Shown here piece by piece: positions 28,148 to 36,757 of a stretch of 38,700 bases of DNA. Position 1 is the stretch's first letter, and each line of letters begins with the position of its first letter. Source of the stretch: Balamuthia mandrillaris (taxonomy: Eukaryota); NCBI GenBank assembly GCA_031835245.2, contig JAVKOQ020000117.1, forward strand, positions 124,001 through 162,700, read 5' to 3'. Both the position numbers and the translations under genes were made by a program. The notes under the pieces are model-generated. The model made no database searches and was not told the origin of the DNA. It saw only the letters and a program-made list of their open reading frames with translations.

Positions 28148-28354
28148 TTTTTTAAATTAATAAAAACATGTTCTAAACTAAAAAGGGCGCTCCTTTTTGG
28201 AAATTATTTTTGCAAAATAATTTTAAATTAATTTTAAAAAATATTAAATAAATAGTTTAGGATTAACAAAAAACAATTAAGTTTATCAAAAAATACTTTA
28301 AAAAGCCAAATTTATTGTGTGAAAGTGATGAACAATTGAATTATCTTACTTACA

Positions 28355-28783
28355 TTAATCATCACAATCATCACTTTCTTCTTTATTCTTCTTTTTCATT
28401 TTTCTCTTTTGTTGTGATGCTAAATAAGCATGCTTGGATATAGCTGACTTGATAATAGAGGATTGGGAAGAAGAAGGAAGAGAAGATGATTTAAATTGTT
28501 GTTGAAAGGCCAATCTACATTGAATAATGTGGTCCTCTAACAGATGTACTGTTAAAGCACTAAAACGTTGCATAATGCTTTCTTTTTCATTGTCCCAAAA
28601 ATGAGTAGAAAAAGCAAAATATCGATGCTTTTGTGCTAAACAAGCAAAGGCCATACACTCAGTAGAGGGATGCAAATCAATGATGCTGTCTTCATCTTTT
28701 GTGTAAAGACAAAGAAACAACTTGTAAATGAGGACAGGTTTGGTGGGAACAGTAACTGCCGTTTTAGGACCAAGGGTGAGTAC
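28355..28783 (-). pseudogene. 5'-truncated coding fragment resembling the C-terminal part of an N4/N6 (beta-class) DNA methyltransferase
   Basis: Frame is open from 28783 with no ATG before the motif. PTKPVLIYKLFLCLYTKDEDSIIDLHPSTECMAFACLAQKHRYFAF parallels the family pattern P.QKP..L...LI...T..GD.VLDPF.GSG....A.....R.FIG, with the FxGxG loop degenerate. Recognised by eye only. Confidence 0.5.
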
Positions 28784-28858
28784 TCAGAACCTACAGCATT
28801 CAACTCCCCTAGTTAGGGTTAGGGGCGGGTACTCAGAACCTACAGCATTCAACTCCCC
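28780..28858. repeat. Perfect 30-bp direct repeat flanking a 19-bp spacer that contains TTAGGGTTAGGG
   Basis: GTACTCAGAACCTACAGCATTCAACTCCCC at 28780-28809 and 28829-28858; spacer TAGTTAGGGTTAGGGGCGG. Confidence 0.95.
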
Positions 28859-28962
28859 ATGGTCCATTCTATAAAACTCTAAGTCTATAAGTCCAACGGA
28901 TAAAGTGGGGCAAAGTAGCAATTTTTTCAATTTTCTCATAGGAATATATATATATATATAAT

Positions 28963-30466
28963 CTAACTGGATATAATCATAATATCATCATCATCATCAT
29001 CATCATCATTCTCCTTTGTTTCTTCCTCTTCATCCAAGATGGATATGACTGTAGTGGTAGTAGTAGAAGTAGGAGATGATGGGAGGGAAGCATGGTTGTC
29101 ATCCGGTGTGTCAAAGTCCTCATCATGGGCCACCAAGTATTTGTCTTTCAAAGCATCGAGATTGTTGAAGAATTCTGTGAGGAGATTGCGCCATTTGTCA
29201 TAGCAATCATTGTTGGTTCGGCGTTGGGTAGGCAAGTGTTTGGCAATCTCCAACCAAGACCATCCATCACACAAGCGCCAAGTGACAAGTCTACGGATTT
29301 CTGGTGTCTGCCAAGCAATCCGTTGTCGATGACCATTCTTCTGATATTTGAGTCGATTGGATAACATTTGTTGTCGCTGCTGAAGTGCTCTGCGAACTCG
29401 TTGTCGTGGTGGTGTTTTTTCTTTTGAGTTATGATTCCTTTCATCATCATCATCGTTATCATCGTTTTTTTTCAGAACATCATCATTAGGAAAAGTAGGT
29501 AAGAATGGCTGCTCTTGATGACGAGAGGTGAGGAATGCTTTGTGAATGGGTGATCCGTTGACCAACTTGGGAAGTACAGGAGCTACAAACTCATCCACCA
29601 GCTCATTCAAGCCACTGAAAAAACCTTGTAGAATGCCAGAGATATGTTGACGGCAAAGCTGACGATGAATATTGGGCCAACGAAGAGGAGATTTGTTTTT
29701 GGCCGCATAAGTTGCTGCAGCTTCAGCTAACACATCCTTGTCAAACTCATCTGAATGATTGTCTACCCAAGCAGTACAACATTCAAGCCACAAGGAGCGA
29801 TAAAATCGTATTTGTTGATCTTTGGTTGGTAAATCTGTTCGTTTCATGAAACTAAAGAAGCAGTGTAAAAGAAAGAAAAAGAAAGAAAAAGAGAAAAAGA
29901 GAAAAAGAGAAAAAGAAAGAATGAGAAAGAAAGAGAGAAAAAGAGACAAAAAAACAAAGTGTGAATAAATGATGCAATGTTAAAAGAAGAACAAATAGAC
30001 CAACACCAATCCATCAAAACAATTATTGTTTAGACCATGAATGTTGTTGCTGTTACAATAAACCTCTGCGTTCGAGCTGAGCGCTGAGTCTAAAGGTGCA
30101 TTTTTGAATGCAAGCAAGCAAGCAAACAAACAAACAAGCCATGACTGAATAGATTGATAGATAGTGGTAGATACCATCCAACACAAAACAAACCAGCAAA
30201 CAAACAAACCAACAAACAAACAACAACAAGCAAAGGCCAACAAAAAAAAAAACAAACAAACAAACAAACAAACAAACAAACCGTTGGCGAACAGCATGGA
30301 TAAAACTCTGATAGTTGGTATCTGCAGACCACTTGGATTGTTGTAAAGCCTCTGGGGATAGATTGTGAAATGCTTCTTTGGTAACTAGCTCTGGAGCAAT
30401 CACTGCAAGGGAGTGAGGATTAAAAAAAACCACAAAGAGAAAAAGTAAGCACAGGTGGTTTATAGA

Positions 30467-30505
<39 letters not shown>

Positions 30506-31344
30506 TAGCCAAAGAAAAAACAAAAGAAAAACAAAAAATCAGATGAATAACAAACCACAATGTCGAGGCCTCGGAGAATGATGATCAGCAGCAGCAGCAG
30601 AAGAAGAAGAAGAAAAAGAAGAAGAAGAAGAAGAAAAAGAAGATGAAGGATGAAGGGTGGTAACATTGCTAACCAAGCGATTGGCCACAATAGCACGTTT
30701 TAATGTATCCTTGACGTAGACTTGCTGAGATCTACCACGAGGTACCCAACCTGCAATAAGGGCAGTGGTATCCAGTACATTGTTCTGACTATGCCCTTCC
30801 TGCAGTCCCTCCAAGATCAAGGCAGTGCAAAGGAAGCCAGCACGTAAGGAGTGAAAGGAGAATAACCCTTCAGGATAACCAGCCCGAACAGCGCGGTCTT
30901 GCAGCTTGGCATTCAAAGTATCGCGTGACCATCCCCATAATGATGTTTGTTTTTGTTTGTCTGTCAAGCACCAGTTGTGAAACTCTCGCAAATCCAAACC
31001 ATGCTTGCACAGCAGATGCTTGTTTAGCCAGTAAATAAAATCTCCAAGACAAACTCCAGCGGTTGATGTTGTTGATGCAGCAGCGGTCGTGATGGTAGAG
31101 GTGGTAGTAGTGGTGCTAAGTGGCAATGAGGATAACGGGGATGGTGATGATGAAGATATTCCTCCTGGTGGTGGTGGTGGTGGTGGTGGTGGTGGTGTTA
31201 AATAACCTTCAAAAGTAACGACATGATTCCAATGATTTGGTATTCCTTTGGTGACTTGTTGGCGCAAAGAAAGGAAATAAAGAGGAGGAGAAAAGGCATC
31301 CTCTTGGTGGTGACAGCTGATGTTGCTGCTGCTGCTGCTGCGGC

Positions 31345-31396
<52 letters not shown>

Positions 31397-31740
31397 ATTG
31401 TTGTTGTTGGAAAAGGAGGATGAAAGTTTAGGTCGAAATGCCACAATATCACCCAAACGAATGTTTGCTGCTGTAATGGCTCTGGCACCAGTACAAACAC
31501 TGTGTAACCAACAACTGGCTTCACCAGCTTTGCTCACCAGTCCATCTGGAGTGGATGCGATGATATGCAAGACGTCATCCAGCAAACAAGCATCTTTGCA
31601 CAATTGTTTGCTAGAACAGGAGGGTTTGGCTCTTTTGCAATGCCGAATGGCCTGTTTGACTTGATCTTTGATGGCATCCATTTGGTTCTTTAGCAACAAC
31701 AAGTAGGCATGATCTGTTGCCATCATTGCTGTCGTGCGTC

Positions 31741-31792
<52 letters not shown>

Positions 31793-33180
31793 AGTGACAC
31801 CATCACCAAGAAGGGTTTTGGATAGAGGAGAAGCATTCCTGCTGGTTGTGGTGATAATAGAAGTAGGTGATGATGCTGGGGATGAAGAGATGGAAGAAAC
31901 AGAGGAAAAGGAGGAGGAGGAGGAGGAGGAGGAGGCAGCAAGGGTATCAAGCTGTTGTTGGATACTTTCATCATGCAAACGATAAAGACTGGCAATCATG
32001 ACATCACGCACAGAGCTCAAGGCATACCCCACATCCAAAATCAACCATTGAACAAAGGCTCCTACGTTATGGCGTTGGAGATTCAAAGGAAGAGCTGGCA
32101 AACATTGATGATGTGCACAATGCGCTTCCCAGATGGCCAAAGTCCAAGCATGTTTATGTTGGGTCGAAGGGCTCCATCGACTCGTCACTGCTGTCAACTC
32201 TGTCCAGCGCTCTTCTGACAAATGGTTCATCAATGTGATAGCACGAGAAAGACGTCTGCCGGCACCATCACCACCGTTACGACTACTGCTGCCATGTGTG
32301 GTATCATCATTATTATCATTTGCTGTTCTAGCTCCAATATGTTGGTTATCTCTTTTCTTCTTTTCTTGTTTTTCTTCTTTGTGTTTTTCTTTATCTTCTT
32401 CTTCTTCTTCTTCTTCTTCTTTGTCATCGGTCAATAACAACAAATCTATCAACGTTGGTGTGGCTGTTGTTTTGCTTGTTGCATCTATATCTGTTTCTGC
32501 TCCTCCTCCTCCTCTTCTGTCTAATGAGGATGATGATAATGACAATAAATTACAATTGCTACCGCTATCCATAACATCTTCATTGTTCTCAAAGACAAAG
32601 GACTCTGAATTTGTTGAAGAAGAAGAAGAAGAAGAAGAAGAAGATAAAGAAGAAGAAAAAGAAGAAGCAAATGAAGAAGAAGAACCAGAAGAAGAAATCA
32701 TCCTTTTTGGTTGTTGTTGTCGTGGTTGTGATTGGGTTGTTGATGCTGTGGTGGTAATGGTGGCGGTGGTGGTGGCGGTGGTGGTGGCGGTGGTAGATGA
32801 AAAGGGTGATGCAGAAAAAGGAGGTGAACAGAGTTCTGCAGGGTTATCAACATTAGCAATAACTGGAGCAGAATCAAGGGTGGTAGCTGATGGTGGTGTT
32901 TTTAACCAATAATGATCCAAAAACTGCTTGCGAATGAAAGAGCGAGAGTCCAGAGCCTGATAGGGAGGCAAGTGATGATAGAGAGATGTTGTGGATAAGG
33001 ATGATGATGATGATGATATTGAGACAATCGTTATTTCATCATCCTCTTCTTTTGCTGCTGTTGCTACTATTGTTTTTGCTACTGCTACTTCTTTGTTGTT
33101 GTTGTTGTTGTTGTTGTTGTTATTGTTGTTGTTTATTGGTAGAGGTTGGTCAAAGGCAGCAGGAATAGATAGATTATCTT
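28963..33180 (-). CDS. Tyrosine recombinase fused to a C-terminal Myb/SANT domain (about 1200 aa from the exons traced; 5' end unresolved)
   Basis: In-phase GT-AG exons 33180-30556, 30402-30282, 30089-30064, 29834-28963. Core-binding-like region (SPSTQHKHAWTLAIWEAHC..VGAFVQWL). Catalytic set TGAR (R, 31483), VTKG (K, 31249), HSLR (30853-30842), AGW (30748), QVY (Y, 30718). Myb: AWQTPEIRRLV..WSWLEIAKHLPTQRRTNNDCYDKWRNLL. Confidence 0.88.
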
Positions 33181-33191
33181 CTGTTTGTTAA

Positions 33192-33227
<36 letters not shown>

Positions 33228-33649
33228 ATAGTAGACACAAACACAAACAACAAATTGTGAAACAAAAGAAACGAGAAGTTAGTAATTGAGGATGAATAAA
33301 TAAAGAGATGATAAAACTAAATGAGAACTATGTGGTTACTCGTTTTGTTTTTCCTTTTCTTTCTCTTTTTTTTCCTTTTTCATTTTTATAATTGCCTTTT
33401 CATCATACTCAGTTGTCTTTTTTTGTTGCCTATCTATTATTTACAACAACAATCACTACTATTACTCACTTACTCTCACTCAGCACTCTTAACCATTATT
33501 ACCATCACCACCATTATTACTTTACTATTCATCTATCTATCCATTGTTTGTTTAACCAATATTATTACCATCAACCAACCAACCAACCAACCAACCAACC
33601 AACTCAAGCTATCACTCAACTAACCAACAAATATAAAAAGAGAAAGAGA

Positions 33650-33693
33650 TCACCTGCCTGTGTTACGGCGTTGTGAACGAGTTGTGGCTCCTT

Positions 33694-33729
<36 letters not shown>

Positions 33730-34122
33730 TAGATGACGCAGCCACAGCAGCAGCAGCACTTTGCAAAGATGATTTGGCTGCAGCAGTAGCAATAGCTTTT
33801 TGGGCAGCAGCTGCAGCCTTGCGCGTAGATTTGTTGCTAAGGCTCTTGGATGCACTTGTGTTTTCCTCTCCTTTCTGTTTTTCTGCTTCTTTTTCTCCAG
33901 CTTTTGCTTCTTCTTCTTCTTCTACTTCTTCTTCTGCTTTCTCCTCTTCTTCTTTTTCTTCTTCTTCTTCCTTGTCTCTGCTAGCATCTTTGCTTCTCTG
34001 TTCCTCTTCTTTTTCTTTTTCTTTTTCTTTTTCTTTTTCTTCTTCTTCTTCTTCTTCTTCTTCTTCTTCTGCTGTTGCTGCTGCTTGTTTAGCTGGGTCA
34101 CTAGCAGTTTGCTTTGATACTA

Positions 34123-34181
<59 letters not shown>

Positions 34182-34185
34182 TAAG

Positions 34186-34222
<37 letters not shown>

Positions 34223-36757
34223 CCACAATCAGTAAGTAATGGAATGAGAAATCACAAAGGCATAACACTGCAAACAAACACCAAAAAGATAGCGCTCCGA
34301 TGGAGCGCTAAACAATCAACACCAAAAGACAATCAAAAAACAATGAATAATAAAAACACAAAACTGGAGTTAAAAAGCTGCCGCTCCGACGGAGCGCTAC
34401 TGCATAAGGATAGAATTGCAACCAAAACAGCCAACAAAAAGAAAAAAACACAAAGAGGAAAAGGACAAACAATCCAACAAACAAACTCCAACCAACAGAC
34501 AAAATGAAATATAATACATACATCCCAACACGTCGATCAGAATGGAATCATCACTCTCTTCATCCACTGCAACTGCTGATGGAGCTGTCTTGGGCATATT
34601 TGTCTTGCTTTTGCTATTTCCACCACCACCACCACGTGGTGTATCTGTATGCATGCATGCATGCATGCATGCAAGTGAGATGCGATGCATTTGTGTGTTG
34701 TTATTGTGCAAAGAAAGGACGGATATAAGCAAGTAATAACAAAAAGAAAAAAAGAAAAAAAAAAAACGAGTAGGAGTAGTGGATGTTGTGGTTGTTGTAA
34801 CCACCAAACATGAGCACCTCTTACCTGTTGCAGGAGTGATATCAACACTCATGAGACTGGCAATCTCATCGTCATCATCATCATCAGCATCAGCATCAGC
34901 ATCATCATTCTCTGAGGAGCTGCTATTGCTACTGCTGCTGCTGCTGATACTAGGAGCAGTAGACTTGGTAGAAGCTGTAGGCTTCTTTTTCTTCTTGGAT
35001 TTTTCTTCTTCCTGCTCTGACTCCTCTGACTTATCTGCCGCCTCTGACTCCTCCGACTCGGTGGCGGTCTTCTTTTTCTTCTTTTTCTGCTGTTGCTTCT
35101 GCTTCTGCTTCTGCTTCTGTTTTTGCTTCTGCTTCTGCTTTTGCTTCTGCTTTTGCTTCTTTTTCTTTTCTTTCAGCAGCAGATCATCATCTGCTTTCCG
35201 TGGCTTCTTGCTTGTTGCAGGAGAAGAAGAGGCAGCAGAGGATGACATAGCTCTTGGGCGCTTTGTTGAGCTTGGTTTTTGCTGCTTTCTTTTTGCTGCT
35301 ATTGCTGCTGTTGCTGCTGCTGCTATGTCCATTTTGTCTACAAACTCACCAACTGATGTAGCATTTGCATCATCATCACCACCACCACCACCACCACCAC
35401 CACCCAGACGACTGCCATCATCAAGACTAAACTCTGCATCATTCAAACTACTACTCTGGTGGTCCACAGCAGCAAAAGAGCGAAGGTCAGGCCCAAAAAA
35501 CTCTGTCAAGTCAATGCAGGGGCTGGCATCAACAGAGATATCTTGCTGCAGCTCACTGCTCTTCTGAGCCAGCTTGTCCATGGCTTTTTGGTGCCTAACC
35601 GAATGGCGTTTGGCGCGATGCTTCTCCCTCTTCATTTCTGTAGTGCCGACTTTGGTAGAGGCTGTATGGATGGGCTGCCACGTTTTGTCTTCCAATTGAT
35701 CCACATATTGTAAATCCCTGGAGAGTAACAGAAAGAGAAAAAGAGAGAGAGAGAAAGAGAGAAAGAGAGAGAGAGAGAGAAATAAAGAGGAAAAGAGAAA
35801 AAGAAAAGTGAAAAAATGGTGAGTTGTTGCTATGAAACAAACAAACAAACAAACAAACAAATAAAAAAACGACTTACCAATCAGCTGCGAGTGGTGATAT
35901 AGTATCCAGCTCAGGCAAATCTTTGACATGCACAATAGCAGCTGCATCGGATAACTGGCCTGCTGGCATGTTAGCTGTAGCAGAGCTGCTAGCTGTACTC
36001 TTGTTCTTGCTTTTGGTGCTGCTGCTGCTGCTTTTGCTTCGTCTTCGCTCAGGTTTTTTGGATTTTTCCACTGCGATGTGCGGCCACACTCGCTCCAGCT
36101 GAGAACGAACCGGATGATGAATGCGTGTCTTCCAGACCTTTCTGTCCAAAGGATCCAACTCCAGCAGAGTATTTTGTTGTTGCGCTTCCTTCACCAAGCA
36201 GCGACGAACAGCAAGCACCAACCGCCTAACATCCTCCAAGGGTCCAGAAAGGTTGATGCTGGTAGAAATGCGCATGCCTTTCAAGGATTTCAGACTGGCA
36301 AAGTTCAACGCGTTCTCTGCCAAGGCTTCTTGCACCGTAAAGGGAGGACAATAATGGGTCAGCTTTATACGGTAGAGGAACAACTTTTCCTTGGCGGAAT
36401 GCTGCTTATCTACTATCGCTTCCTTTTGGGCCGCTTGCTCTAATTGCTGGTGATCCAGTGGGGGATGTAAGAAGGCCTCTGGATCTTCCTCCATCATCGC
36501 TTCTTCTTCTTCTTCTTCTTCTTCTTCTTCTTCTTCTTCTTCTTCTTCTTGTTGCTCTTCGTCTTCATCTTCCTCTTCCTCTTCTTCTGACATCCTCTCT
36601 TGTTGTCCTTTCTTTTGATGACGGCTTGTTGTTGCCTTTGGGAGAGTAGCTGACATAAGGGCATCTGCCAAAGACGACTCATGTAACCATTCTTGGCTCA
36701 ATGGTGGCAAGCGAGTATTTTCCTCGTGTGTTGGGCTATCACTATGAGTAAGCGAGA

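Follow-up and report, generated by a model that had tools for sequence, protein, structure and literature searches.

What is marked by two identical 30-bp direct repeats that enclose two units of the telomere-type hexamer TTAGGG, shortly after the stop codon of a tyrosine-recombinase gene of the amoebozoan Balamuthia mandrillaris? The original prediction took this arrangement for the terminus or an att-like site of a mobile element. We analysed it in a stretch of 38,700 nucleotides (contig JAVKOQ020000117.1 of assembly GCA_031835245.2, forward strand, positions 124,001 to 162,700), which is called the window here and to which all positions refer. We propose that the inner repeat, with a 4-nt linker and two telomere-type hexamers, is probably the 3' end of a multi-copy element encoding a tyrosine recombinase with a Myb domain, and the likely site at which this element joins TTAGGG-like targets.

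The 30-mer GTACTCAGAACCTACAGCATTCAACTCCCC is present exactly at 28780-28809 and 28829-28858 on the plus strand, and the spacer TAGTTAGGGTTAGGGGCGG occupies 28810-28828. The end of the inner 30-mer lies 104 nt past the stop codon TAG (28965-28963, minus strand) of the recombinase-Myb gene, in agreement with the predicted distance of about 100 bp, and the neighbouring stop-to-stop frame (28355-28783, minus strand) is cut off at the first repeat copy as had been described. Two matches to GTACTCAGAACCTACAGCATTCAACTCCCC, with up to 3 mismatches allowed, were found in none of 100 dinucleotide-preserving shuffles of the window. The telomere 12-mer TTAGGGTTAGGG, which occurs once in the window, is by itself unremarkable, because 10 of the 100 shuffles also contained one such match. 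A repeat search extended the pair to 46 nt at 87% identity with a 49-nt period (28764-28809 versus 28813-28858), and the 16 nt to the left of the two 30-mers differ by 6 mismatches, all 6 being transitions. Read on the gene strand, the outer unit is 30-mer-TCAC-CCTTGGTCCTAA and the inner unit 30-mer-CCGC-CCCTAACCCTAA, so that the linkers differ at 2 of 4 bases and the 30-mers at 0 of 30.

The boundary of the repeated family was located in short Logan contigs from three DNA samples (X1, X3, and X6), over 28305-28940. Summed contig depth, which does not equal copy number, was 151-452 to the left of 28811 and 8,232-47,870 to the right of it in X1, 0-156 and 199-513 in X3, and 0 and 25-325 in X6. 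All three samples thus showed a step of 5- to more than 100-fold at 28811/12, beyond which the raised depth lasted for 130 nt, as compared with 13 nt for the telomere-like part; one 84-nt exact contig (28845-28928) alone had a depth of 189 in X3. At least 15 contigs carried unlike left flanks at 28812-28829. Their loose ends were at 28812 in eight contigs of X1 (consensus agreement 0.52) and two of X6, with one each at 28814, 28817, 28818, 28822, and 28829. Since the depth step and the unlike flanks both fall at the first TTAGGG, we conclude that the multi-copy family begins there, at 28812/13, and that the hexamers vary somewhat in number and form. The repeated family includes the inner 30-mer but not the outer one. 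The repeat is not unique, as contigs of all three samples pile up on 28812-28940, and the terminal 130 bp or so is far more abundant than the flank.

This boundary also bears on the 6-bp inverted pair CCCCTA (28806-28811) and TAGGGG (28820-28825), which had been pointed out as possible arms of a crossover site around an 8-bp core. The pair is present around its 8 nt, but it is not a conserved site, because the CCCCTA arm lies in variable flank that is not common to the other copies seen, outside the shared terminus. A hairpin or cruciform reading was likewise rejected, as the DNA fold (z = -2.1) was equalled by 6 of 200 shuffles and is unremarkable.

Several further observations were made on the same contigs. 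The depth of up to 47,870 in X1 compares with about 21-26 for single exact contigs, that of about 500 in X3 with about 10, and that of about 325 in X6 with about 7-32; the excess in X6 ends near 28876. CTAG or TAG stands directly outside the hexamers in about half of the listed flanks (the window at 28809-28812, the X1 consensus, X3 at 28817, and X1 at 28829) and is absent from the gene-model tails described below. One RNA run gave five reads on the stretch, most of which continued into unlike sequence; these are uninformative on expression either way.

We investigated whether the same terminus is found beside paralogous recombinase genes, using the translated tails of B. mandrillaris gene models. 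A 52-residue translation of 28787-28942 (minus strand) matched four of them, P0182-P0185, and each carries a window-type Myb exon, 70-80% identical to that of the window, followed by LEFYRMDHGELNAVGSE. Across the inner 30-mer this peptide was identical to the window translation at 17 of 17 residues in all four copies. The terminal block appears to be under constraint, because it is fully identical in translation while the adjacent Myb exons are only 70-80% identical. Three of the four models go on with Y[PS][PH]LTLT, which is the translation of linker and hexamers, and then diverge (LMF-stop, KYI-stop, and IVLKDV...).

A second subfamily, typified by P0002, gave the same picture. Among 15 sequences of this type, 9 contained the Myb motif; three of these end naturally (KYGSEEAICQHFNI), three jump into other genes, and three enter the terminus with STRP-stop (P0014), VPAPNPN (P0015), and APNPN (P0016), all exact translations of 28833-28812 in two frames. 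P0014 stops inside the telomere-type repeat. P0015 shows a hexamer peptide of three units (NPNPN) and then passes at once into a Ras domain, from profile position 75 of 162, and into Rap-GAP. A third hexamer unit is found in P0182 as well as in P0015, and the substitutions Pro to Leu in P0016 and Pro to Ser in P0184 require T as the first linker base. Altogether six other gene models reach the telomere-type peptide, and the five that read beyond it all differ there (LMF-stop, KYI-stop, IVLKDV..., FMLVY... of the truncated Ras domain, and K-stop). At least six other copies from two subfamilies therefore carry block, linker, and (CCCTAA)2-3 after the gene in unchanged orientation, a seventh (P0185) carries the block alone, and homology among copies ends at the telomere-type repeat. 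These results support the conclusion that a Crypton-like element family, known here from this one end, has a conserved 3' terminus made up of the inner 30-mer, the 4-nt linker, and (CCCTAA)2-3. Of the predicted element end, the inner 30-mer, linker, and hexamers held up; the outer 30-mer did not belong to it, and the boundary runs inside the predicted feature, at 28812/13. As a side result, recombinase-Myb copies are merged with genes of the host (for Ras/Rap-GAP, a DEAD-box helicase, and a protein with RNase_T) in the public gene models P0015, P0022, and P0184, so that 'Rap1 GTPase-activating protein 1' and 'DEAD-box helicase 53' are names of chimeric predictions.

The locus can accordingly be divided as follows.

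28813 to 28825, minus strand: telomere-type terminal motif, TTAGGGTTAGGGG on the plus strand and (CCCTAA)2 on the gene strand; the last bases common to the element family, from the jump in contig depth, the loose ends, and the peptides of six gene models.
28826 to 28828, minus strand: linker, CCGC on the gene strand when the first C of the repeat is counted; its first base is C or T among copies (substitutions in P0016 and P0184; TCAC in the outer copy).
28829 to 28858, minus strand: inner 30-mer, the conserved sub-terminal block and candidate recombinase-binding region, within the high-depth family and translated as part of LEFYRMDHGELNAVGSE.
28859 to 28962, minus strand: 3' untranslated or sub-terminal region, multi-copy at least to 28940 by contig depth.
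28963 to 33187, minus strand: tyrosine-recombinase-Myb gene, from open reading frames, exon mapping against P0003, catalytic motifs, a weak Myb Pfam match, and homologues.
28776 to 28812, minus strand: locus-specific extra sequence, GTGA plus outer 30-mer plus TAG (CTA, 30-mer, TCAC on the gene strand), outside both the shared family and the P0005 homology.
28373 to 28777, minus strand: fragment of a P0005-like repeated gene, residues 101-235 of 472, truncated at both ends (tblastn, 84% identity).

The abundance of the terminal 130 bp or so, which far exceeds that of the gene (the P0003 cluster has one member, against the contig depth), might suggest an unrelated short interspersed repeat, MITE- or SINE-like, that happens to lie after the gene. 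We consider this very improbable. In seven other gene models of two subfamilies the repeat stands after the Myb exon and has the same orientation, and neither a tRNA (ARAGORN) nor an Rfam match (E <= 10) was found on it, so that a tRNA-like or SINE head was rejected as well. The interspersed-repeat explanation is thereby largely refuted.

The gene that precedes the terminus encodes the full catalytic set of a tyrosine recombinase and a C-terminal Myb domain. Exon mapping against B. mandrillaris P0003 joined two long minus-strand frames (30539-33187 and 28963-29979) into one gene, with a long exon to 30557, small exons at 30403-30281 and 30088-30065, and a last exon at about 29835-28966 before the stop codon. 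Its best homologues are proteins of B. mandrillaris, and P0003 covers it at 97-98% identity (97% in the last exon). The catalytic motifs are CTGARAI (31495-31475), VTKG (from 31255), FHSLRAGF (30856-30833), and AGW...YVKD (30757-30707), and the residues R287, K322, H413, R416, W448, and Y458 (P0001 numbering) were invariant in 24 of 24 aligned family members. Of 30 relatives, 3 matched the Phage_integrase family (PF00589), 2 of which passed the cut-off; in Atlas look-alike clusters 13-86% of the members carry it, which serves as a lead only. The Myb match of the window protein in Pfam was weak, and 23 of the 30 relatives matched Myb. Helix 3 of this domain reads R[TS]xxDCKD[KR]xRN in most of the 24 members, which resembles the telobox motif.

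The recombinase frame 30539-33187 contains very long single-residue runs (about 24 N, 16 A, and 11 P, and many S/T) between its conserved blocks; in the alignment, P0001 and P0002 are without them. Upstream of this frame, 33190-34540 on the minus strand holds intron-like stretches, with an acceptor ...aacag directly before AAGATAATC at 33187, and an acidic and lysine-rich exon-like stretch at about 34120-33652. The gene may have more 5' exons or be fused to an upstream frame of 597 residues (34397-36190), which matches no Pfam family. A palindromic motif of the type GCGCTCC-NTC-GGAGCG occurs twice on the minus strand, at about 34395-34375 and 34310-34290, some 90 nt apart; both lie inside the putative upstream intron and adjoin long (GTT)n runs. 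The window neighbourhood otherwise contains ordinary genes (MIF4G, SAPS, and Kelch).

Recombinase-Myb genes are dispersed in many copies in B. mandrillaris. The P0002 cluster (at least 90% identity) has 17 members, all from this species, and the 15 listed ones are on 16 contigs that differ in length; the P0001 type has two full members. The P0002 type is only about 43% identical to the window protein, and the two subfamilies that share the terminus are about 43-50% identical in protein. These figures bear on an explanation without any mobility, in which the gene family and its 3' flank were spread by ectopic recombination or segmental duplication and the interstitial telomere tracts are old fusion or healing points, as in subtelomeric duplicons. 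A block that ends in telomere units, tandem arrangements with truncated copies (P0002/P0023 and P0185), and the patchwork of repeats around the element end in the window would all suit it. It is difficult to reconcile, however, with an end at the same nucleotide or nucleotides in two subfamilies so far apart in protein sequence, with copies on many contigs beside unrelated genes (Ras/RapGAP, DEAD-box helicase, and a protein containing RNase_T), and with a terminal block that is better conserved than the neighbouring coding exon, and the window neighbours are ordinary genes. We give this explanation little probability, somewhat more than the interspersed repeat.

On the reading that we prefer, the element would move as DNA in the way suggested for Cryptons: one terminus would carry a short donor motif that recombines with a near-identical target, here a telomere-like hexamer, and different crossover registers would leave two or three hexamers. 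The 30-bp block, the hexamers, or both may be bound by the recombinase and its Myb domain, and circles closed by joining the 3' motif to similar sites inside the element could give rise to the many 5'-truncated copies.

The principal rival to recombinase-mediated movement is copying primed by G-strand ends. In this scheme an element transcript or single strand would anneal through its CCCUAA-like 3' end to a natural or broken end (flank-TTAGGG...), which would serve as the primer for copying it, and the recombinase would have another role or none; end-primed copying has reportedly been proposed for endonuclease-deficient Penelope-like elements. It would yield a fixed, telomere-capped 3' junction with variable 5' truncation, in the orientation flank-(TTAGGG)2-antisense element. 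The variable number of repeat units (the third unit in P0182 and P0015), the small gene models that hold only the 3' part of the gene (P0182 and P0183), and the fall of X1 depth from 47,870 to 8,232 away from the end all agree with it. Against it, no reverse transcriptase domain was found in a Pfam scan of 20 frames of the window, and the flanks are internal genes rather than chromosome ends. Copies also seem to keep their introns, since the micro-exon ((T)LKPSAQLKR / LSAQLERR) is given an exon of its own in the gene models of both P0185 and P0003. Finally, an intact, conserved recombinase in dispersed copies argues that the recombinase is the mobility enzyme. Taken together, we consider G-strand priming improbable, if less so than the explanation without mobility.

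We then turned to the outer 30-mer, which lies between the shared terminus and a fragment of another gene. The P0005 homology at 28373-28777 covers residues 101-235 only. Paralogues of P0005 in X3 go on past 28775 with the coding sequence of residues 92-100, leaving a loose end at 28775, and the homology breaks at 28775/6. The 37 nt between this fragment and the family boundary consist of GTGA, the outer 30-mer, and TAG, and the right-hand 12 nt of the outer unit (gene strand) are P0005 coding sequence. The outer unit could be a 34-nt stump of the 3' end of another copy (linker TCAC), joined to the P0005-like gene at the telomere-like pseudo-site CCTTGGTCCTAA; the full copy would now adjoin this pseudo-site junction. 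We favour this origin, at somewhat less than an even chance, because T at the first linker base recurs in P0016 and P0184 while the 30-mer is invariant and the flank is P0005 coding sequence. There are other examples of ends that abut a similarly oriented, 5'-truncated piece of another repeat: P0002/P0023 continue as a P0001-type copy from about residue 492, and P0185 is followed by a second copy of the window type. A search of the window for the continuation of the P0005 paralogues, as a possible far side of the insertion, gave 0 matches with up to 3 mismatches allowed.

The alternative for the two 30-mers is that the outer copy is a fresh local tandem duplication of 49 bp of the element end, produced by replication slippage or unequal exchange. 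The identity of the 30-mers and the 49-nt period fit such an event, and the small depth excess over 28789-28810 (291 versus about 152) suggests a rare arrangement. To the left of the outer 30-mer, however, the 16 nt are P0005 coding sequence (TLGPKT) and not diverged hexamers, and it would be odd for the linker to have changed at half of its bases with the 30-mer intact, when two other copies share the T at the first linker position. A tandem duplication is therefore the less likely of the two and, in our view, doubtful.

Other observations concern this flank. The P0005-like fragment (28305-28775) belongs to a low-copy diverged family, with 5-6 variant contigs per site in X1 and X3, and is absent from X6 at a likeness of 88% and above; in X3, one contig links position 28310 to the same gene in inverted orientation. 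At 28777-28786 the junction of GTGA and GTACTCA forms a perfect 10-bp palindrome, TGAGTACTCA, in the outer copy only; its three extra bases would be expected by chance in about 1 of 64 cases. Several readings of the region were rejected: a plus-strand intron GTGAGT...CCCCTAG (there is no gene on that strand and the inner copy is without AG), a spliced leader (no support), a gag-like C-terminus of P0005 (no Pfam support), and a long terminal repeat (full P0005 paralogues continue as coding sequence, not repeat).

Comparison with known systems places the family nearest to Crypton DNA transposons, reportedly described by Goodwin et al. in 2003. Both have a tyrosine-recombinase gene with introns and an extra C-terminal DNA-binding domain, no reverse transcriptase nearby, one terminus consisting of a short specific motif, and no terminal inverted or long direct repeats seen; copies are linked to truncations and rearrangements, and some Cryptons target simple repeats. 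Recombination of a terminal donor motif with a near-identical target is the model supported for CryptonF-1_cRei, which has CACCG at its terminus and CAYCG as its target; truncated copies occur, as do rearrangements of the targeted sites (PMC9977147). CryptonV families are found inserted in microsatellites (PMC8869645). Kojima & Jurka 2011 (PMC3212892, in part) gives Cryptons with GCR1_C or no extra domain and 4-6-bp termini, and the word Myb is absent from that text. The family described here differs in its Myb domain instead of GCR1_C, in giving no DUF3504 match, in its amoebozoan host, and in a terminal motif that is not a unique 4-6-mer but a host-type telomere hexamer present two to three times and preceded by a conserved 30-bp sub-terminal block. 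Its 3' terminal motif is defined, and a second terminal copy or rightly oriented TTAGGG was not found in the window.

Endogenous nimaviruses offer a second comparison. Their tyrosine recombinases insert in telomere repeats, as described in part of PMC10871703, so that in both cases a recombinase of a eukaryotic host is tied to telomere-type repeats at insert ends, and concatemer-like junctions are reported there. The nimaviral inserts are 300-kb viral genomes in long (TAACC)n tracts, with C2H2 and arm-binding domains, whereas here a gene-sized element with a Myb domain joins 2-3 hexamers to unique flanks.

Telomere-type repeats also form the very ends of TBE1, a mobile element of the ciliate Oxytricha, which has inverted termini at both ends and a DDE transposase, in contrast to the tyrosine recombinase and single known end found here. 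DIRS and Ngaro elements are tyrosine-recombinase retrotransposons with reverse transcriptase/RNase H, split direct repeats, and a B1-A2-B2 end. The recombinase and the order 30-mer, spacer, 30-mer recall them, but because the other copies seen are without a second 30-mer, this form is not the structure of the family. With no reverse transcriptase in the 20 frames either, the element does not belong to DIRS/Ngaro. Interstitial telomeric sequences, which are inserted at repaired breaks, may look alike in that a short (TTAGGG)2 between direct repeats resembles a filled-in staggered break. The hexamers are found together with the inner 30-mer at many loci that differ in their left flanks, and they therefore belong to a repeated element and not to a single repair event. 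No description of a recombinase-Myb transposon with telomere-repeat termini was found in the open-access papers searched, which did not include Repbase Reports or subscription journals.

A number of results weigh against our interpretation of the repeat as the joining end of a recombinase-driven element. Priming on a G-strand end would likewise give fixed 3' ends, numerous copies truncated at the 5' side, and the observed order of flank-(TTAGGG)n-antisense element. The paralogue evidence comes from translated tails of gene models, not from the DNA of the copies, and one of these tails, P0185, departs after GSE, directly past the 30-bp block and without hexamers, before it enters the second, 5'-truncated window-type copy. 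Contig depth is not copy number, and the excess depth of X1 over X3 and X6 is unexplained; strain differences, extrachromosomal copies, and library effects are inseparable in it. In the window, no 30-mer copy beyond the two and, above 28819 on the plus strand, no other TTAGGG was found. A partner site at the far end, an empty-site allele, a 5' end, and a circle junction were likewise not found, the second motif having been sought in the window. As to the enzyme, the window protein, P0001, and P0004 gave no PF00589 match, and DUF3504 was matched by 0 of 30 relatives (E <= 0.001) and by none of these three proteins (E <= 0.1). Finally, the Myb domain is not set apart as telomere-type by structure scores: its profile scored 36.8-39.9 bits against single-repeat c-Myb chains, 33.9-34.5 against TRF1/TRF2, and 28.5 against Tbf1. 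Because these scores do not separate TRF-type from c-Myb-type repeats, the reading of telomere sequence by the Myb domain is to be taken as a hypothesis.

The recombinase-Myb family extends well beyond B. mandrillaris, to 400 representative clusters at E <= 0.001, mostly on contigs of 2-8 kb, with one named relative in Monocercomonoides exilis (P0035). An exact 22-mer of the 30-mer had 0 matches in metagenome contigs. When the 3' ends of relatives' loci were sought, none was found in genome or viral contigs, and the sole contig recovered, metagenome contig L001 (3 kb), has only the 5' part of its homologue. On this contig, about 1 kb upstream of the recombinase homologue, positions 1605-1630 read CTTTAGGGTTAACCTAAAG, a near-palindrome of two telomere-like half-sites that may be due to chance. 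A broader and, in our estimation, unlikely proposal is that a tyrosine-recombinase-Myb family widespread among eukaryotes uses the telomere hexamer of its host as recombination site, with the Myb domain reading TTAGGG, the crossover falling inside the repeat, and the element homing to telomere-like sequence or chromosome ends. Such a homing element would seed interstitial telomere repeats, truncate genes, and leave thousands of one-ended stumps, and it would constitute a natural, programmable-looking eukaryotic integrase with a defined protein-site pair.

What is known of eukaryotic DNA transposons with tyrosine recombinases comes almost entirely from sequence, and there has been little testing of their chemistry or cis sites. 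The present case combines a defined terminus (30-bp block, 4-nt linker, and hexamers), an intact enzyme with a DNA-binding domain, and many natural junctions, and binding, cleavage, and integration are therefore directly testable. The many insertion sites may serve as strain markers, and the breadth of the family, with its 400 clusters and its relative in Monocercomonoides, means that many protists are open to a check of the terminus rule. Should crossover take place at the hexamers, a transposon family would be linked to the recognition of telomere-type sequence, and this would explain some of the interstitial telomere repeats and gene truncations in B. mandrillaris, where Ras/RapGAP, DEAD-box helicase, and P0005-like genes are cut at the junctions.

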